A stretch of DNA of 5,937 nt from a virus: positions 1 through 5,937 of the IMG/VR virus record IMGVR_UViG_3300045988_001624; one strand, written 5' to 3'. A program made the translations under genes and the position numbers. Shown here piece by piece: positions 1 through 5,937 of this stretch. Under the pieces are notes generated by a model that saw only the letters and a program-made list of their open reading frames with translations, did no database searches and had not been told where the DNA came from. The first letter of the stretch is position 1. Each line of letters begins with the position of its first letter.

Positions 1-55
1 GGTATTCGACTGTAAGAAAAAAGGAGAAAAACAATGGAACACAACTATTATGGCA
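1..55. repeat. Terminal redundancy: 1-55 is identical to 5883-5937, the signature of a circular genome assembled with overlap. True unit length is 5882 nt.
   Basis: Direct comparison of the first 55 nt (ggtattcgactgtaagaaaaaaggagaaaaacaatggaacacaactattatggca) with the last 55 nt of the window; exact match. Confidence 0.95.
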
Positions 56-273
56 TCTGGGACAGCGTAGCAAAATGTTACGCATGGATTGGCGAGAGCA
101 AAAATGACCAGACGTTTGCACGCATGTGCAACGTAATGCAGAAGGACGAAAAGACCTTTATCGGGCAGTCGCCGCAGGACTACGCCGGGCACAAACTGGC
201 AGTGTTCAACGACGAAAGCGGAGAATTCACCAACTACAAAGAAAAAGTGTGGGAGGGTAAGCCGAATGAATAA
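34..273 (+). CDS. Hypothetical small protein, 79 aa. By position (between the small basic protein and the VP3-like gene) it could be a VP5-like accessory protein; function unknown.
   Basis: ATG at 34 preceded by AAGGAG (21-26) with 7-nt spacing. Stop TAA 271-273 overlaps the ATG of the next gene (ATGAATAA), suggesting translational coupling. Same strand and A-rich codon style as the other genes. Confidence 0.55.
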   Translation: MEHNYYGIWDSVAKCYAWIGESKNDQTFARMCNVMQKDEKTFIGQSPQDYAGHKLAVFNDESGEFTNYKEKVWEGKPNE

Positions 274-700
274 AAGATACGAAGAAGGGCGAAAGCCCTT
301 CTTTTCTGAATCAGGCAAAACACAACGAAAACAATACGTTTGGGCAAAAAACAAAGAAGGCAAAGAATATCTGCAGGAAACAGAAAGCATTGACATTCAA
401 GCAGAAATTGAAAGCTATGCAGACGAATGCGATATTAAAAACATTGTACGAAAAGCAAGTTTTGACCCGCAGTTTATGCAGAGCCTTTCACAGGGAGCAT
501 TGGACGGGACAGAGACAGATATCACGGAATGGCCACAGAACATCCACGAGTATCATCGAATGATTGCAACAGCACGAGCAAACGCAATTGCACTGCAGAA
601 GATGCAGAAAGAAGCGCCAAAAGAAACGCCAAAAGAAACGCCAAAAGAAACGCCAAAAGAAACACCAAAGGAAGGAGAGAAGAAGAGTGAATCGGAATAA
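266..700 (+). CDS. VP3: Putative internal scaffolding protein (VP3-like), 144 aa, with a C-terminal (KETP)x5 low-complexity tail.
   Basis: Sits immediately upstream of VP1, as VP3 does in gokushoviruses. The acidic middle region followed by a W-P-x-N...A-rich helix resembles gokushovirus VP3 architecture as I recall it. Start is translationally coupled to the upstream ORF. A 12-nt tandem repeat encodes the PKET repeats. Confidence 0.55.
   Translation: MNKRYEEGRKPFFSESGKTQRKQYVWAKNKEGKEYLQETESIDIQAEIESYADECDIKNIVRKASFDPQFMQSLSQGALDGTETDITEWPQNIHEYHRMIATARANAIALQKMQKEAPKETPKETPKETPKETPKEGEKKSESE
282..308 (+). terminator. Hairpin with a GNRA loop: stem aagaagggc / gcccttctt (9 bp), loop gaaa, followed by a T-rich run. 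It lies 9 nt after the stop of the 79-aa ORF and inside the 5' end of the VP3-like gene. Candidate leaky terminator or mRNA-stabilising structure.
   Basis: Inverted repeat 282-290 / 295-303 read directly from the sequence, followed by ttct. Confidence 0.4.
616..675 (+). repeat. Tandem 12-nt repeat gccaaaagaaac: 4 perfect copies plus 1 degenerate copy, in frame within the VP3-like gene, encoding (P-K-E-T)n.
   Basis: Perfect copies at 616-627, 628-639, 640-651 and 652-663; degenerate copy at 664-675. Confidence 0.9.
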
Positions 701-728
701 CGAACGGCATTTTAACCAGATTCCGGAA

Positions 729-2360
729 ATGAAAGCAAGCCGAACGCGATTCAATCGAGATCAGACGATTTTAACGACATTCGACGCGGGTAAACTCATC
801 CCATTTTACGTGGATGAAGTATTGCCGGGTGACACTTTCAGCGTGGATACAGCGGCGATTATCCGTATGACAACGCCAAAATACCCGGTAATGGACGATA
901 GTTTTATCGACTTTTACTATTTCTTCTGTCCGAACCGCATTTTGTGGGACAACTTCAAATACTTTATGGGCGAAGTGGAGGAAACTCCGTGGATGCCTAC
1001 AAAAACGTATGCTGTACCACAAATCAAAATCAACGGAAATAGTGCAGTAGCTAAACCAAATGAAAGGTCAATTCTTGACTACATGGGCGTGCCCACAAAG
1101 ATAAATAAACCATTCAGTGTAAACGCGCTTCCTGTCAGAGCATACGTTAAAATCTGGAATGAATTTTTCAGAGACCAAAACGTAGATAACGCAGCAAGCA
1201 TAAAAACGGATGACGAAGACGTAATCTATAATTCAACAGAAGACCAAAAGGGAACTTTGGAAGAAGACCTGAAGTTTGCAATCAGCGGCAACAACCTGTT
1301 ACCGGTTAATAAATTCCACGACTATTTCACAAGCTGCCTACCGTATCCGCAGAGAGGGCCAAACGTAACACTACCGCTAACTGGAAATGCAAGAGTAGAA
1401 TGGAGTTTTTCAACAGAAGAACTGCAGAATTACGGAATCATGACCAGCAACGGTGAAACACATCTGATACCGACAAACGGAAATACGTTAGGAGCACCCA
1501 CAAGAAACGAAGATAACGGAAAGGCAAGAGTAATATTTGGAAAAGACACAAACGGAGTATCTACATGGGTGCCAATGGAAGCAAGGCTAGACAATGCAAC
1601 ATCAGCAACAATCAACCAGCTTCGACAGGCCATCAGCGTGCAACAGTACTACGAAGCACTAGCAAGAGGTGGCTCACGGTACAGAGAGCAAGTACAGGCA
1701 ATTTGGGATGTCATCATTTCGGATAAAACGGTACAAGTGCCTGAATATCTGGGCGGCGGACGCTATCACGTCAATATCAACCAAATTGTGCAGACCAGTG
1801 GCCAGCAGACAAACAATGATACACCCATTGGTGAAACCGGTGCAATGTCCGTCACACCTATCAATGAAAGTTCTTTCACAAAGAGTTTCGAAGAGCATGG
1901 CTTTGTGATTGGCGTGTGTTGCGTAAGACATAGCAGAAGCTACCAACAGGGGCTTGAACGTTTCTGGAGCAGAAAAGACCGCCTTGACTATTATGTGCCG
2001 CAGTTCGCAAATCTGGGAGAACAGCCAGTAAAAAAGAAGGAAATCATGCTCACCGGCAATACAACCGATGATGAAACCTTTGGCTATCAAGAAGCATGGG
2101 CAGACTACCGGATGAAGCCAAACCGTGTAAGCGGTTTAATGCGAAGCAACGCAACGAGAACGCTCGATTTCTGGCACTATGCAGACAACTATGCAGAAGT
2201 TCCTACACTGTCGCAAGAGTGGATGGCAGAAGGAAAAGCGGAAATCGCAAGAACGCTAATTGTAGAGGACGAGCCCCAATTCTTTGGAGCAATCCGCGTA
2301 GCAAACAAGACAACTCGCAGGATGCCGCTTTACAGCGTGCCGGGGCTGTACAAACTGTAA
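729..2360 (+). CDS. VP1: Major capsid protein VP1 (Microviridae F-like / gokushovirus VP1), 543 aa from ATG 729. An alternative GTG start at 687 has a strong SD.
   Basis: The N-terminal region TTFDAGKLIPFYVDEVLPGDTF...FYYFFCPNRILWDNF is the hallmark conserved block of gokushovirus VP1. Length fits VP1. Stop TAA 2358-2360. Confidence 0.93.
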   Translation: MKASRTRFNRDQTILTTFDAGKLIPFYVDEVLPGDTFSVDTAAIIRMTTPKYPVMDDSFIDFYYFFCPNRILWDNFKYFMGEVEETPWMPTKTYAVPQIKINGNSAVAKPNERSILDYMGVPTKINKPFSVNALPVRAYVKIWNEFFRDQNVDNAASIKTDDEDVIYNSTEDQKGTLEEDLKFAISGNNLLPVNKFHDYFTSCLPYPQRGPNVTLPLTGNARVEWSFSTEELQNYGIMTSNGETHLIPTNGNTLGAPTRNEDNGKARVIFGKDTNGVSTWVPMEARLDNATSATINQLRQAISVQQYYEALARGGSRYREQVQAIWDVIISDKTVQVPEYLGGGRYHVNINQIVQTSGQQTNNDTPIGETGAMSVTPINESSFTKSFEEHGFVIGVCCVRHSRSYQQGLERFWSRKDRLDYYVPQFANLGEQPVKKKEIMLTGNTTDDETFGYQEAWADYRMKPNRVSGLMRSNATRTLDFWHYADNYAEVPTLSQEWMAEGKAEIARTLIVEDEPQFFGAIRVANKTTRRMPLYSVPGLYKL

Positions 2361-2362
2361 GA

Positions 2363-2395
2363 AAGGAGGAAGCCGGGAGAAATCCCGGCTATTTT
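2363..2395 (+). promoter_or_regulatory. SD AAGGAGG (2363-2369) followed by a perfect 8-bp hairpin (agccggga gaaa tcccggct, 2371-2390) and atttt, 10 nt before the VP2 ATG. Candidate leaky terminator and/or a structured RBS that folds to bring the SD near the start codon.
   Basis: Perfect inverted repeat AGCCGGGA / TCCCGGCT with a GAAA tetraloop, seen directly in the sequence. There is no SD within 15 nt of ATG 2401 unless the hairpin is folded out. Confidence 0.5.
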
Positions 2396-2400
2396 AAAAA

Positions 2401-3309
2401 ATGGCGTTTGGAATAGACGACTTCTTGATGTTAGCCGGAGGCATTGGAACGGTAGCAAACACAATAGGAAACGTGGCAAATGCCGCAGGAAACGTAGGAA
2501 GATTATTCGGCGGATGGGGTCAAACAGGCCAGAGCCAGAGCGCGGGCGGAAGCACACAGCAAGGTGGCGGAAGCAGTCAAAGCATGAGCAAATCCGGAAC
2601 GAATGATGAACAGGTGATGCAGTATCTGAAAAATGCATACCAATATCAGACAGCAGAAGGACAAAGACAAAGTCAATTTAATCAACGATCTATGTTGGAA
2701 CAGATGGGTTACAACACACTAGGAGCAATCGCACAAGGCATATACAATCACATCGAAAACGCAGCGGCAATGAACTTCAACTCGACAGAAGCAATGAAAA
2801 ACCGGGAATGGCAAGAATACATGTCAAATACAGCCTATCAGAGGGCAGTTGAAGACATGAAAAAAGCTGGACTTAATCCTATATTAGCATTCCAGAACGG
2901 CGGCGCAAGCACGCCCGGAGGAAGCGCAGGAACGATATCAGGTGCAAGCATGGGAGCGCCATCATCAAGTGCGCTAGGAGTAAGCAGAGCAAGTGGATTC
3001 GTGCCTAACTCTTACTCAAGTGAAAGTTGGTCAAAAAGTGATTGGTACAACGCTGCACAAAGCTGGAATCAAATGTTGAGTTCAACGGGAATGTCACCAT
3101 ATGGCCTAATGAAAGCATTTGAAGGAATCAACAACGGTGTCGATAACGTAATGGACGAAAACGTGCCAAACAACAGAAAATCCGGAAATAACAAGCATGG
3201 AGGTATAACAGCACAAAACTTTGGTGGTACAAAAAAGAACACAGTAACCATGCAAGACAAAACAGGAAGTTACGGACAAAAGAGAAAGCCAGGTGATTAT
3301 TTAAAGTGA
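2401..3309 (+). CDS. VP2: Minor capsid / DNA pilot protein VP2, 302 aa.
   Basis: Gly/Ala/Asn-rich N-terminus (GGIGTVANTIGNVANAAGNVG). Contains the conserved gokushovirus VP2 block NREWQEYMSNTAYQRAVEDMKKAGLNPILAF. Located directly after VP1, as in gokushoviruses. Confidence 0.9.
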   Translation: MAFGIDDFLMLAGGIGTVANTIGNVANAAGNVGRLFGGWGQTGQSQSAGGSTQQGGGSSQSMSKSGTNDEQVMQYLKNAYQYQTAEGQRQSQFNQRSMLEQMGYNTLGAIAQGIYNHIENAAAMNFNSTEAMKNREWQEYMSNTAYQRAVEDMKKAGLNPILAFQNGGASTPGGSAGTISGASMGAPSSSALGVSRASGFVPNSYSSESWSKSDWYNAAQSWNQMLSSTGMSPYGLMKAFEGINNGVDNVMDENVPNNRKSGNNKHGGITAQNFGGTKKNTVTMQDKTGSYGQKRKPGDYLK

Positions 3310-4325
3310 GCTGCTATAAGCCGTTAATACGGATATACAGCCCAGAAAACAGAGAAATTAGCGGGCAAGTGTATTCACTTGCCCGCTATTCTGAAAGAGT
3401 GGGCAAAAAATTAAAATATGAAGATTTAATATATGAACCAAAAGTTATGTTAATACCTTGTGGGCAGTGCATCGGATGCAGAATACAGCAAAGAGAAGAC
3501 TGGACAACAAGAATTGAACTAGAAGCGAGACAATGGCCGAAAGAGCAAGTATGGTTTATCACATTAACATATGATGATGAACACATACCGGGAATGATTC
3601 TTAGTACAGGCGAAATCATGAGAAAAGTGCAGTATGTTTGGAAACCAGGGAAAAAAACACCGGAAAGCGTGCAAACACTACTATACACAGACGTGCAGAA
3701 ATTCTTAAAAAAGCTCAGAAGAGCTTACAAATCAAGATTAAGATTCTTCTGTGCAGGAGAATATGGAGAGCAAACGGCAAGGCCGCATTATCACATGATA
3801 CTATACGGATGGGAACCAACAGACCTGAAACAGCTATACAAAATCCAACACAACGGATACTTTACTTCAGAAACACTTTGTAAAATTTGGGGCAATGGAA
3901 ATGTGCAAATTGCACAAGCAACACCGGAAACATACAGGTATGTTGCCGGATACGTAACGAAAAAAATGTACGAAATTGATGGCAAAAAAGCAAATACTTA
4001 CTATGAGCTAGGGCAACAAAAGCCATTCGCGTGCATGTCACTTAAACCGGGACTAGGAGATGCCTACTATAAAGAGCACAAAGAAGAAATCTGGAGACAA
4101 GGCTACATTCAATGCACCAACGGAAAACAAGCACAGATACCGCGATACTATGAAAAGATGATGGAAAAAGAAAACCCAGAAAGGCTGTGGAGAATCAAGC
4201 AAAATAGGCAAAGAAAAGCAATCGAGCAAAAAAGGCTACAGCTGGAAGGCAAAGACTACAAAACACAATTAGAAACAAAGGAGCGTGTTATCAAAAAACA
4301 AACGAGAAAGCGTGGAATCCTTTAA
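3306..4325 (+). CDS. VP4: Rolling-circle replication initiator VP4 (phiX174 gene A-like HUH endonuclease), 339 aa, with a GTG start overlapping the VP2 stop (GTGA).
   Basis: N-terminal CxxC block (CGQCIGCR). Motif I FITLTYDD, motif II HUH as PHYHMILY (codons at 3786-3794) and motif III YVAGYVTKK (Tyr codons at 3939 and 3951). Motif III is near-identical to phiX174 A protein YVAKYVNKK. SD AGGTGA at 3291-3296, 9 nt upstream of GTG 3306. An in-frame stop at 3294-3296 excludes any upstream start. Confidence 0.92.
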   Translation: MSCYKPLIRIYSPENREISGQVYSLARYSERVGKKLKYEDLIYEPKVMLIPCGQCIGCRIQQREDWTTRIELEARQWPKEQVWFITLTYDDEHIPGMILSTGEIMRKVQYVWKPGKKTPESVQTLLYTDVQKFLKKLRRAYKSRLRFFCAGEYGEQTARPHYHMILYGWEPTDLKQLYKIQHNGYFTSETLCKIWGNGNVQIAQATPETYRYVAGYVTKKMYEIDGKKANTYYELGQQKPFACMSLKPGLGDAYYKEHKEEIWRQGYIQCTNGKQAQIPRYYEKMMEKENPERLWRIKQNRQRKAIEQKRLQLEGKDYKTQLETKERVIKKQTRKRGIL

Positions 4326-4337
4326 TCGGTGTCACTT

Positions 4338-4374
4338 AGCCCAGTACCTATCAAGTAGGGTACTGGGCTTTATT
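4338..4374 (+). terminator. Rho-independent terminator-like hairpin immediately after the VP4 stop: stem AGCCCAGTACC / GGTACTGGGCT (11 bp, extendable to 13), loop tatcaagtag, then tttatt.
   Basis: Inverted repeat 4338-4348 / 4359-4369 followed by a T-tract at 4369-4374. The loop is the reverse complement of ACTTGATA (see findings). Confidence 0.6.
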
Positions 4375-4420
4375 CGCGCGCACACGCGCACGCGTAGACG
4401 CGCGCACACGCGCACGCGTA
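4375..4420. repeat. Two tandem copies of the 22-nt unit cgcgcgcacacgcgcacgcgta (4375-4396 and 4399-4420), separated by ga. Each unit alternates pyrimidine and purine perfectly and is GC-rich, so it is Z-DNA-prone. Each unit contains an MluI-type palindrome acgcgt.
   Basis: Exact 22/22 identity between the two copies, read directly. Strict Y-R alternation across each 22-mer. Confidence 0.9.
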
Positions 4421-4458
4421 TTATTATATAACTTGTTGTAGCCGTAGTAGTAGAGTAA

Positions 4459-4622
4459 GTTGAAAAGTTAAAAACAGATAATTTTGAACGTTAAAACATT
4501 AAAAAAAGATAAAAACAAGCGTTGAAAGATTTGTTGAAAAAATGTTAAAATGTTAAAATACTCTATTGTGCTAAAGTTTAACAATGTGGAAATGTTGAAA
4601 ACTCTGTGGAAAATGTTGAAAA
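4459..4622. repeat. AT-rich iteron-like array with at least 9 copies of a TGTT(G/A)AAA(A) core. It includes a perfect tandem tgttaaaa x2 (4543-4558) and a ~18-nt direct repeat tgtggaaa(a)tgttgaaaa (4585-4601 and 4605-4622). Candidate DNA-unwinding / protein-binding region.
   Basis: Motif occurrences: gttgaaaa 4459-4466, gttaaaaa 4467-4474, gttaaaac 4490-4497, gttgaaag 4521-4528, tgttgaaaa 4532-4540, tgttaaaa 4543-4550 and 4551-4558, tgttgaaaa 4593-4601 and 4614-4622. Confidence 0.7.
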
Positions 4623-4765
4623 GAACGGCAAATAGAGCAGGACAAGTGGCGGCCGCAAAGTCTGACGGACCGCGCCAATATTTGAAGATGTGCGCCTTCG
4701 GGCGGGAGTTCAACGGCGGTCCTATCCTAGGAAAGGTTACAAATTATTACAAAGAAGCAAAATCA

Positions 4766-4794
4766 TTGAAAAAGGTATTGACAAGTAATATAAT
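4766..4794 (+). promoter_or_regulatory. Sigma70-like promoter: -35 TTGAAA (4766-4771), 17-nt spacer, -10 TATAAT (4789-4794). Predicted TSS is near 4801, driving the downstream small-gene block.
   Basis: Consensus hexamers with canonical spacing. First credible ORF starts 23 nt downstream, with a GGTGA SD. Confidence 0.45.
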
Positions 4795-4823
4795 GGAACC
4801 AGAAAGAAAGAACGGTGAAAACC

Positions 4824-5036
4824 ATGAAAACAAAATGGCTTACAAAAAAACAACTGGAATATTTAAAAGTGAACGGCAGAGTATGGGGAAACAAATACTA
4901 TTATGTAAAAGTAGTACATGGAATCGTAAAATACCATGAAATCTATTACAAAACAGAAACAGGAAAAAAGCTCATGACTGATGATTATGCAACATTCAAT
5001 AGTTTATGGAAATACGCAAAGATAAAAGAGGATTGA
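4824..5036 (+). CDS. Hypothetical Tyr/Lys-rich small protein, 70 aa from ATG 4824 (the ORF track shows a GTG at 4815). No transmembrane segment.
   Basis: ATG 4824 is preceded by GGTGA (4814-4818). A-ending codon bias matches the rest of the genome. Stop TGA 5034-5036 sits just before the peptidase RBS/start. Confidence 0.45.
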   Translation: MKTKWLTKKQLEYLKVNGRVWGNKYYYVKVVHGIVKYHEIYYKTETGKKLMTDDYATFNSLWKYAKIKED

Positions 5037-5041
5037 CGAAA

Positions 5042-5431
5042 ATGATTAAATGCTATATCATGGATACAGACGCAAATGAAAATGTTGGCAAGCACTTCAA
5101 AGTAAAAGAATTCGCGTGCAAAGATGGTTCACAGGTAGTTTTCATAGACAGCTATCTAGTATCAATTCTGGACATTCTCAGAAACCAAGTTGGAAAGCCA
5201 GTGCACATAAACAGTGGATACAGGACACCAACAAGGAATAAATCGGTAGGCGGTGCAAAGTACTCATACCATATGCGGGGAATGGCCGCGGACATTCGGG
5301 TTAATGGCATGACCTCAAAAGAAATCGCCAACAAACTGAAAAAAATCATCCCGACTGGCTGTGGAATCATCGTATACAGTACATGGGTACACATCGACAC
5401 GCGCACCAAAGCATACAGAAAGGGGGTGTAA
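5042..5431 (+). CDS. Peptidase M15_3 family (zinc D-Ala-D-Ala carboxypeptidase / endolysin-like peptidoglycan hydrolase), 129 aa from ATG 5042. The ORF track's upstream ATG at 5006 has no RBS.
   Basis: Near-textbook Peptidase_M15_3 signature: F..EF.C.DG....L...L..LR...GKP..INSGYRTP..N..VGGA..S.H..G.AADI.V.G........GCG..VY...VHID.R, including the H...D...H zinc-ligand pattern. RBS AAGAGGA at 5026-5032, 9 nt before ATG 5042. Confidence 0.9.
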   Translation: MIKCYIMDTDANENVGKHFKVKEFACKDGSQVVFIDSYLVSILDILRNQVGKPVHINSGYRTPTRNKSVGGAKYSYHMRGMAADIRVNGMTSKEIANKLKKIIPTGCGIIVYSTWVHIDTRTKAYRKGV

Positions 5432-5433
5432 AA

Positions 5434-5553
5434 ATGGCTTTTATCAGTCTCAAAGACGCAAAGGAAGCAATCAAAGTGATGATGGAAATCCTAGCAGTGC
5501 TTGACAAAATTTATCATGCGCTGGTGGACAACGTCACCGATAAGACGGAGTAA
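5434..5553 (+). CDS. Unannotated 39-aa ORF (MAFISLKDAKEAIKVMMEILAVLDKIYHALVDNVTDKTE), amphipathic-helix-like. Below the size cut-off of the supplied ORF track.
   Basis: ATG 5434 is 6 nt after the AGGGGG run (5422-5427). Starts 3 nt after the peptidase stop. Its stop TAA (5551-5553) overlaps the AAGGAG RBS of the next gene, so it is tightly packed like the real genes. Confidence 0.3.
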   Translation: MAFISLKDAKEAIKVMMEILAVLDKIYHALVDNVTDKTE

Positions 5554-5563
5554 GGAGAAAAAA

Positions 5564-5791
5564 ATGGTTACAAAATCATGGAACGTAAGAGACCAGACCG
5601 AAAAAGAACTAACCGAACTGCTTGAAAAGAAATACAAAGAAATCGAGAACGATTACAAGCTCCTACGAAAAATAAGCGAGATTGAGACCGCAAAAAAGAT
5701 GATAGATGAAATATGGCAATGCAAAAGATTTGCCAACGTCATTGAGCTGGAGCTTATCAGAAGGGGATTCTATAATGGGACGACATCGTAA
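5564..5791 (+). CDS. Hypothetical helical / coiled-coil-like protein, 76 aa from ATG 5564. The ORF track extends it to 5501, but that portion has no RBS.
   Basis: AAGGAG at 5552-5557, 6 nt upstream of ATG 5564. Charged heptad-like sequence (EKELTELLEKKYKEIENDYKLLRKISEIE). Confidence 0.55.
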   Translation: MVTKSWNVRDQTEKELTELLEKKYKEIENDYKLLRKISEIETAKKMIDEIWQCKRFANVIELELIRRGFYNGTTS

Positions 5792-5897
5792 AGTAATGCG
5801 CAACGCAAAGGACAAGCGTATGTTCAACGTGACCGCGCGAAAAACGAAAAGTATCAACCTGAGTCAGAAACCAATGCGCGGCGGTATTCGACTGTAA
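5775..5897 (+). CDS. Small highly basic DNA-binding / packaging protein (phiX174 J-like; gokushovirus ORF8-like), 40 aa: MGRHRKVMRNAKDKRMFNVTARKTKSINLSQKPMRGGIRL.
   Basis: 12 of 40 residues are K/R. The C-terminal PMRGGIRL matches the characteristic ending of gokushovirus ORF8-type proteins as I recall them. SD AAGGGG at 5761-5766, 8 nt upstream. Runs across the circular junction (end equals position 15). Confidence 0.7.
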   Translation: MGRHRKVMRNAKDKRMFNVTARKTKSINLSQKPMRGGIRL

Positions 5898-5937
5898 GAA
5901 AAAAGGAGAAAAACAATGGAACACAACTATTATGGCA
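5883..5937. repeat. Second copy of the terminal redundancy (equivalent to 1-55).
   Basis: Exact identity with 1-55. Confidence 0.95.

Follow-up and report, generated by a model that had tools for sequence, protein, structure and literature searches.

A small hairpin directly behind VP4, the replication protein (Rep) gene of a gokushovirus-type microvirus (IMG/VR record IMGVR_UViG_3300045988_001624, positions 1 to 5,937; this whole stretch of 5,937 nucleotides (nt) is called the window here), may represent the site at which replication of the viral strand begins. We propose, with a probability of roughly 0.6, that the hairpin and the GTGACACC box beside it form the origin of rolling-circle (viral-strand) synthesis, and that they are the copy, in this clade, of an element carried by most of the gokushoviruses sampled. 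Judged by its sequence, this 45-nt element, made up of the hairpin, its ACTTG^AT loop and the GTGACACC box, is a precise origin candidate for the whole subfamily, and it would belong with the nick-site origins of HUH-type Reps, related to that of phiX174. The unexpected part is its polarity: in the abundant gut clade that includes the window, the element is inverted with respect to the genes.

A conserved hairpin and box beside the replication gene

On the plus strand, the VP4 open reading frame (ORF) is followed by TCGGTGTCACTT, the arm AGCCCAGTACC, the loop TATCAAGTAG, the second arm GGTACTGGGCT and TTTATTC; read on the minus strand, the same stretch is AGCCCAGTACC-CTACTTGATA-GGTACTGGGCT-AA-GTGACACC (coordinates in Table 1). 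An earlier note, made from the sequence alone, had described a hairpin 12 nt after the VP4 stop, with a stem of 11-13 base pairs (bp) and a 9-nt loop. The sequence and a repeat search confirm that the hairpin is real and stands at that distance. The search returned 11-nt arms, 100% complementary and separated by 10 nt; the stem thus has 11 Watson-Crick pairs (12 if one T-G pair is counted), and the loop, TATCAAGTAG, is 10 nt long rather than 9. Folded as single-stranded DNA, the plus strand of the hairpin reaches -12.0 kcal/mol (z-score -3.5) and its minus strand -12.1 kcal/mol (z-score -3.9), values equalled by none of 200 shuffles. On the complementary strand the loop does hold the phiX174 nick core, as the note had claimed, in the form of an exact ACTTGATA. 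The chance expectation of this 8-mer, put at about 0.2 by the note, was computed as 0.13 for the window, and 24 of 200 shuffles contained at least one match; taken alone, the match is weak evidence for an origin. The box is a putative duplex binding site for VP4, and its GACACC starts, on the minus strand, 18 nt past the predicted nick. By analogy with the phiX174 site G4305^A4306, cleavage at ACTTG^ATA would fall between the minus-strand bases opposite 4352 and 4351.

The hairpin was followed through a sample of close relatives comprising 13 GenBank genomes and 80 IMG/VR loci with VP4 at 78-94% identity. It is present at the same place and in the same orientation in about 90 loci of the window clade, in all of which the gene-strand loop is an invariant TATCAAGTA(A/G), with GGTGTCAC(C) conserved just upstream. 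The arms, on the other hand, vary between AGCCCAG, AGGCCAG, AGTCCAG, AGCCAAG and AGCCTAG, each with a matching 3' arm. In an alignment of 41 distinct versions, both sides were altered in 5 of 13 stem pairs (28 cells), the covariation score of the stem was 0.123 versus 0.036 in shuffles (0.123 being reached by 0 of 500), and sliding the partner strand abolished the pairing. The comparison of relatives that the earlier note had recommended therefore revealed no loss of either part: the loop is invariant and the stem covaries. Two sister clades extend the picture. In the MG945135-like clade, with VP4 46% identical, the arms are GTGGGCCTAATCC and the loop is TATCAAGAAG; in the KX513864-like clade (the L013 clade), with VP4 42% identical, the arms are CTGGCCCAAG, TGGCGCAAG or CCGGCACAAG and the loops ATAGACAAGTAAG or ATAGACAAGGAAG. 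Both clades retain CAAG as the loop core and GTGTCA as the box, with arms entirely different from those of the window. In the L012 clade, the loop reads TCTTGATA on the minus strand. Three loci have additional copies of parts of the element (L068, 3385-3560; L085, 4010-4151; L088, 4015-4240): two tandem boxes (CAGTGTCATGGTGTCACC) stand ahead of the hairpin, and the loop motif recurs, unpaired, about 60 nt downstream (CTATCAAGTA or CTATCAAATA).

The cultured gokushoviruses Chp2, SpV4 and phiMH2K likewise possess hairpins whose loops hold (C)TACTTG(A/T)T, like the minus-strand loop of the window. In Chp2 (AJ270057, 2904-2941) this is the strongest hairpin of the genome, CTAGCGTATAACAG-TCTACTTGAT-CTGTTATACGCTAG, with a 14-bp stem in a non-coding region and a loop, TCTACTTGAT, that has 9 consecutive bases in common with the minus-strand loop of the window. 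In SpV4 (M17988, 512-544), whose Rep was located using genetic code 4, it is TGGGGCATAT-ATTACTTGTTATA-ATATGCCCCA and starts 7 nt past the Rep stop, a position similar to that in the window (12 nt), and in phiMH2K (AF306496, about 3300-3335) a 9-bp stem encloses GGACCCTACTTGTTGTAA. The 3' boxes of these three phages are partial matches only (GTGATAGC, TTGACGAC and CTCACAG), and their motif is on the coding strand, whereas that of the window is on the non-coding strand. No origin is annotated in the GenBank records of Chp2, SpV4 or phiMH2K. We found no published mapping or description of a gokushovirus origin or of this element, older subscription papers on these three phages lying outside the search.

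The generality of the element is seen in 80 diverse genomes from soil, marine, freshwater and gut samples that were picked only by the similarity of their VP4 to that of Chp2 (37-50% identity). A perfect hairpin of at least 8 bp with ACTTG, TCTTG or ACTAG in its coding-strand loop is present in 62 of them, typically as AGCACAGTTAC-yTACTTGAT-GTAACTGTGCT, and most of these 62 have (G)TGACACC 0-5 nt past the 3' arm. Across all 80, ACTTG is found in a hairpin loop in 52 genomes and its complement CAAGT in only 2; every one of the top loop 5-mers is contained in TACTTGAT. A scan of IMG/VR for ACTTGAT, 9-18 nt and TGACACC, in which a hairpin was not required, returned 51 VP4-encoding contigs; the motif was on the coding strand in 48, a stem of at least 7 bp surrounded the loop in 48, and both held for 45. 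The only invariant columns among 60 diverse aligned elements were CTTG and TGACA, with the CC after TGACA nearly so and the arms free (the window arm and the commonest arm are alike at 8 of 11 positions). The element adjoins rep in most genomes; in typical gokushoviruses it usually precedes VP4, mostly by no more than about 300 nt, and is followed by GTGACACCAAA. In L208, L220, L247 and L280 the loop CTACTAGAT replaces CTACTTGAT (CTAG for CTTG) while arms and box are unchanged, which suggests that the position before the presumed nick has undergone a change that is tolerated or has co-evolved.

Since the minus strand of the window shares loop, box and spacing with this general element, the hairpin of the window is its homologue. 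Seen against the aligned sequences, the phiX174-like 8-mer of the window is the conserved core of the element and not a coincidence. The family features are all there, namely an inverted repeat of at least 7 bp (11 bp here) with covarying arms, a yTACTTGAT loop and a box 2 nt past the arm. The usual coding-strand orientation of the family is absent; this inversion is a departure from the usual state, not from what defines the element, and marks the copy in the window as a variant. The earlier suggestion of a candidate replication origin in this hairpin beside rep is thus strongly supported by comparison, the element being found across gokushoviruses.

How such an element might work can be outlined. 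VP4, presumably the enzyme that acts on the hairpin, would bind the duplex replicative form at the GTGACACC box, and supercoiling would extrude the inverted repeat and present the 10-nt loop single-stranded. A tyrosine of VP4 would cut ACTTG^ATA, within the minus-strand sequence CCCTACTTGATAGG, and remain attached to the 5' end, while a host polymerase would extend the 3' end. After one round, a second tyrosine would cut the regenerated site and seal the displaced strand into a circle. In the window, the displaced and presumably packaged strand would be the non-coding one, and the fork would run head-on to transcription. Since the element is kept in phages of unrelated hosts, its partner is more likely to be a phage protein than a host protein.

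Orientation of the element and the packaged strand

All 175 scorable loci of a superclade (the window and 174 others, in three clades with VP4 at least 42% identical) have the element on the non-coding strand. In clades outside the superclade, the count is 114 loci with the element on the coding strand versus 5 with it on the opposite strand. These five are L248 and L276, the superclade relatives L324 and L351, and L342; the last was discarded as an independent inversion, its contig being chimeric with two VP4 genes. In L276 (4187-4216) and in L248, whose VP4 proteins are about 48% identical to each other, an origin-like element has been inverted independently. As the box is inverted along with the loop, it is the whole 45-nt element that has been flipped. 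The nick made by a Rep determines which strand is displaced and, in microviruses, which strand is packaged. Since a Rep is unlikely to evolve recognition of an exact reverse complement, the simple reading is that in the clade of the window the non-coding strand would be nicked, displaced and packaged. The coding-strand motif of Chp2, SpV4, phiMH2K and the 114 loci agrees with the accepted positive polarity. The earlier note had taken the plus strand of the window to be the viral strand, an assignment at odds with the position of ACTTGATA on the other strand, where a Rep nick would displace the non-coding strand. We consider it an even bet that a large, abundant clade of human and pig gut phages, made up of the window and at least three sister clades with VP4 identity down to 42%, has an origin antisense to all of its genes and packages antisense DNA, which would make its members the first "negative-sense" microviruses, and that a portable hairpin-plus-box is the Gokushovirinae origin, whose orientation sets the packaged strand and has flipped independently at least twice more (in L248 and L276).

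Base composition and recent substitutions bear on this question of polarity. At four-fold sites, A greatly outnumbers T on the coding strand of the superclade, the (T-A)/(T+A) skew being about -0.6, and genomes with a coding-strand origin have a median skew of +0.27. phiX174, Chp2 and SpV4 are T-rich at these sites, and the window and phiMH2K are A-rich; of the two independently inverted loci, L248 is A-rich on the coding strand (-0.71) and L276 is T-rich. Recent four-fold-site substitutions were reconstructed by parsimony on the closest pairs with outgroups, with the coding strand as the reference; the whole-clade rare-allele spectrum was abandoned, its four-fold sites being saturated and too few of them usable. 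In the window clade, with its non-coding-strand origin, C>T is depleted relative to G>A (24/764 versus 48/616; odds ratio (OR) 0.38, p = 1e-4), as is G>T relative to C>A (OR 0.10). The two other clades with non-coding-strand origins behave in the same way: the ORs for the transitions and transversions, respectively, are 0.22 (p = 2e-11) and 0.34 in the L012 clade, and 0.16 (p = 1e-17) and 0.09 in the L013 clade. With the origin on the coding strand, they are 3.9 (p = 5e-8) and 7.4 in L227, from the same gut data set, and 2.3-2.9 (p = 0.003-0.013) and 1.2 (p = 0.6-0.8) in L219, which is compositionally balanced. The asymmetry of C>T versus G>A is therefore on the ACTTGAT-bearing strand in 5 of 5 well-sampled clades, and that of G>T versus C>A in 4 of 5, being absent in L219. 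Cytosine deamination and guanine oxidation are the damage expected on exposed single strands, and the mirror-image substitution spectra fit antisense packaging in the window clade.

An alternative that leaves room for recognition of the hairpin by VP4 is that the hairpin is regulatory, auxiliary or a relic, and that the coding strand is packaged after a nick elsewhere, either at AACTTG^TTG on the plus strand of a second conserved sequence, block B (TATTATTATATAACTTGTTGTAGCCGTAGTAGTAGAG), or at another site. Block B is almost invariant in all three clades of the superclade, and in the window, as in 119 of the 172 scorable loci, it has AACTTG on the coding strand; it also resembles the loop variants ACTTGTTGT and ACTTGTTATA of phiMH2K, L230 and SpV4. 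A nick within it would retain the textbook polarity of the Microviridae, and the composition-based strand test is not decisive against it. In the remaining 53 loci, however, block B is on the opposite strand: it is in plus orientation in 78 window-clade and 41 L012-clade loci, and in minus orientation in 4 window-clade loci and in all 49 scorable loci of the L013 clade. The four window-clade exceptions (L059, L069, L074 and L078) have block B and the adjoining GTTGAAAA repeats inverted as a unit, next to GC-rich repeats, and by this comparison of sequences block B and the adjacent repeats behave as an invertible module. A strand-specific nick site would hardly occur in both orientations, as block B does; the block probably functions in duplex form. 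Neither a hairpin nor a GACACC box was found within it in the window sequence. The earlier note had seen a second partial match to the nick site at 4429-4438, and AACTTG is indeed present there on the plus strand; its proposed part in nicking is the portion of that claim that fares poorly. Moreover, both ACTTG motifs are on the non-coding strand where block B is inverted, so that no coding-strand ACTTG is left in the region and even a nick in block B would imply a flipped polarity in part of the superclade. A relic would not be expected to keep an invariant loop, a box and a compensatory stem down to 42% VP4 identity, and the sign of the substitution asymmetry is shared by the window clade, where block B is plus, and the L013 clade, where it is minus. 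We dropped block B as the main plus-strand nick site on account of its two orientations, within and between clades, and its want of hairpin and box, and regard a coding strand packaged through a nick away from the hairpin as unlikely.

The two further explanations that we weighed do without a nick by VP4 at the hairpin. The hairpin could be a complementary-strand origin, at which host primase or RNA polymerase would prime on the packaged strand as at the G4 origin hairpins or ssoA, a role that would suit a hairpin that is stable, non-coding and conserved in its loop. The ssoA-type single-strand origins of rolling-circle plasmids, with their CS-6 loop motif TAGCG(T/A) and RS-B site, also pair a hairpin with a conserved loop motif; TAGCG occurs on neither strand in 4326-4375. 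Yet loop and box are constant in phages of Chlamydia, Spiroplasma and Bdellovibrio as well as in gut, marine and freshwater samples, which would hardly be expected of a host-specific priming signal, whereas VP4 is common to all of them. The loop matches the nick core of phiX174-type Reps, the element is a neighbour of rep in most genomes, and with a complementary-strand origin, too, the non-coding strand would have to be the functional single strand of this clade. This makes priming by the host a distinctly improbable account of the hairpin. Poorer still are the prospects of the hairpin being an intrinsic transcription terminator or mRNA 3' stabiliser of the VP1-VP2-VP4 transcript and nothing more, to which we give hardly any credence. 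The hairpin does stand directly after the last gene of that block, and its G+C-rich stem is followed by TTTATT in the window, but a terminator scan did not call it, and the T tract is missing in many relatives, in which the 3' arm is followed by AGAGCCGTTT, ACCCCTC or ATTATT. Nor does a terminator need an invariant loop or a flanking box, and RNA of other clades would carry the complementary loop. Finally, the hairpin of the L013 clade ends 5-25 nt upstream of the VP4 start, which excludes a terminator role there, and that of typical gokushoviruses is, as noted, usually upstream of VP4. The negative scan, the unconserved T tract and the position of the L013 hairpin led us to reject termination as the explanation.

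Several points nevertheless weigh against the element being a rolling-circle origin that directs the packaging of the antisense strand. To our knowledge, every one of the characterised Microviridae is described as a phage that packages coding-sense DNA. The proposal assigns no role to block B or the repeats beside it, and the TTTATT behind the hairpin of the window is compatible with a secondary role in transcription termination. The T/A skew does not go strictly with orientation (L276, inverted, has +0.65; L254, not inverted, has -0.64) and is negative in 27% of the genomes with a coding-strand origin; together with phiMH2K, these exceptions disqualified base composition alone as a read-out of the packaged strand. 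Substitution rates at compositional equilibrium restate the skew, and on the coding strand A prevails in the inverted clades and T in L227. L376, the only A-rich clade with a coding-strand origin, gave an OR of 1.2-2.1 that was non-significant on few events, and its transversions lean in the opposite direction. In view of this equilibrium confound and the weak signal of L376, we put the odds of antisense packaging in the window clade at about even or a little above.

The gokushoviruses rank among the commonest single-stranded DNA phages in guts and oceans. For metagenomic genomes, the element could serve as a guide to orientation; it could also inform the design of vectors and of synthetic or rebooted phages, and help in assays of VP4. 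If antisense packaging is true, the uniformly positive-sense description of the Microviridae needs revising, and the polarity of the virion would be set by a small invertible cis element. This would also have consequences for replication-transcription conflicts, for mutational strand bias and for strand-aware virome methods.

Genome context and the rest of the non-coding region

Positions 1-57 of the window recur at 5881-5937, and this terminal redundancy of 57 nt shows the contig to be a closed circle of 5880 nt; the window is a complete circular gokushovirus-type microvirus. Its nearest GenBank relatives, at 76-88% nucleotide identity, are gut microviruses of human, pig and monkey samples. 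The plus strand carries every recognisable gene (Table 1), and a 490-nt non-coding region lies directly 3' of VP4. PF23343 is the only Pfam match of VP4, and the Pfam search detected no helicase domain in the protein. An Rfam search of the whole window, with E up to 1, returned zero matches.

Table 1. Positions of the element, block B and the genes in the window
Feature	Position	Strand	Remarks
Origin-like hairpin	4338-4369	-	Arms 4338-4348 and 4359-4369, loop 4349-4358
Nick-core motif ACTTGATA	4349-4356	-	Sole occurrence in the window
Box GTGACACC (GGTGTCAC on the plus strand)	4328-4335	-	2 nt 3' of the hairpin, minus-strand reading
Conserved block B (TATTATTATATAACTTGTTGTAGCCGTAGTAGTAGAG)	4419-4455	either strand among loci	37 nt; holds AACTTG 4430-4435 (+)
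VP5-like gene	34-273	+	
VP3 scaffold	266-700	+	
VP1	687-2360	+	
VP2	2401-3309	+	
VP4/Rep, HUH rolling-circle Rep	3306-4325	+	Pfam PF23343 REP_ORF2-G2P, E = 5.9e-18; PHYHMIL, YVAGYVTKK
Peptidase M15	5006-5431	+	

The non-coding region contains several other repeats and hairpins. Between the origin-like hairpin and block B (4375-4420) are two 22-nt direct copies of CGCGCGCACACGCGCACGCGTA, alternating purine-pyrimidine and partly palindromic, which vary among relatives in length and sequence and are absent in some. On the far side of block B, 164 A+T-rich bases (4459-4622) hold eight iteron-like repeats on the plus strand, of the forms GTTGAAAA, GTTAAAA and GTGGAAAA; each has a -35-like TTGAAA. 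The repeats, conserved in relatives, flip along with block B. Some of the copies (TGTGGAAAA) bear what we take to be a resemblance to a DnaA box. Between these repeats and the promoter match described below lies a G+C-rich stretch (4625-4740) with several short hairpins, for example GGCGGCCGC, GCGCCTTCGGGCGGG and CCTATCCTAGG, without an Rfam match; relatives have other strong hairpins in this region (AAGGGGTTGAC...GTCAACCCCTT and GCGACAGCGCCCC...GGGGCTGTCGC). At 4766-4794, just upstream of a small ORF at 4815 and the peptidase M15 gene, is the sequence in the genome that best matches a sigma-70-like promoter (TTGAAA, 17 nt, TATAAT; 11/12).

Two features lie within genes. Near its 5' end, VP4 contains a perfect 13-bp hairpin, TAGCGGGCAAGTG-TATT-CACTTGCCCGCTA (3359-3388), which was considered as a phiX174-like intragenic origin and rejected: a stem of at least 10 bp is present in only about 17 of 92 clade members, some of the variants being compensatory, and the hairpin is a subclade feature, not the origin. 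Shortly before the start of VP1, at 613-668, four tandem 12-nt units (AAAGAAACGCCA-like) encode a (KETP)n repeat in the C-terminal end of VP3.

Relation to known origins

The closest parallel is the origin of phiX174. The annotation of this phage (J02482) places the origin of viral-strand synthesis at 4306. A recent study by saturation mutagenesis states that the 30-nt ori is cut by protein A between G4305 and A4306, and that synonymous changes in codons Q107-D115 (CAACTTGATATTAATAACACTATAGAC) are detrimental (bioRxiv 10.64898/2026.07.25.740675). The nick core ACTTG^ATA of phiX174, G4 and alpha3 (Bullavirinae) is the same as that of the window at 8 of 8 positions, the bases upstream of it being CT in the window where phiX174 has CA. 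phiX174 has GACCACC 17 nt past the nick and the gokushovirus element GACACC 17-18 nt past the presumed one; by analogy of position, the box of the window may have the same function as the key sequence of phiX174. The enzymes are alike as well. Both are HUH proteins (HFHAV in protein A, PHYHMIL in VP4) with two tyrosines four residues apart, and the likeness in motif III to which the earlier note had drawn attention is borne out (YVAKYVNKK and YVAGYVTKK). The layouts differ: the phiX174 ori is inside gene A, on the coding (packaged) strand, and has an A+T-rich spacer without a hairpin, whereas the site of the window is intergenic, 12 nt past the rep stop, on the non-coding strand, and its spacer is the 3' arm of an 11-bp hairpin.

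The double-strand origins of rolling-circle plasmids of the pC194/pUB110 type have the nick consensus CTTGATA. They likewise share the CTTG^ATA core, and their Rep is of the same broad class as protein A of phiX174; these origins are, however, plasmid-borne and differ in Rep family and in layout from the element described here.

The earlier note had also called the arrangement CRESS-like. The circular Rep-encoding single-stranded (CRESS) DNA viruses, such as circoviruses and geminiviruses, do follow the same logic, with an HUH Rep, a covarying inverted repeat, a conserved nick loop that is single-stranded, a binding site flanking the stem, and rep as the neighbouring gene. Their loop nonanucleotide is NANTATTAC, which is unrelated to the loop of the window (TATCAAGTAG or, on the minus strand, CTACTTGATA). 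CRESS-DNA viruses have iterons where the window has one box (and some of its relatives two in tandem), and their Rep is an HUH endonuclease fused to a superfamily 3 (SF3) helicase, whereas VP4 matches PF23343 alone. The description is therefore apt in a loose sense, for the stem-loop, the conserved loop and the place next to rep; in loop motif, box and type of Rep, the element resembles phiX174 and pC194.

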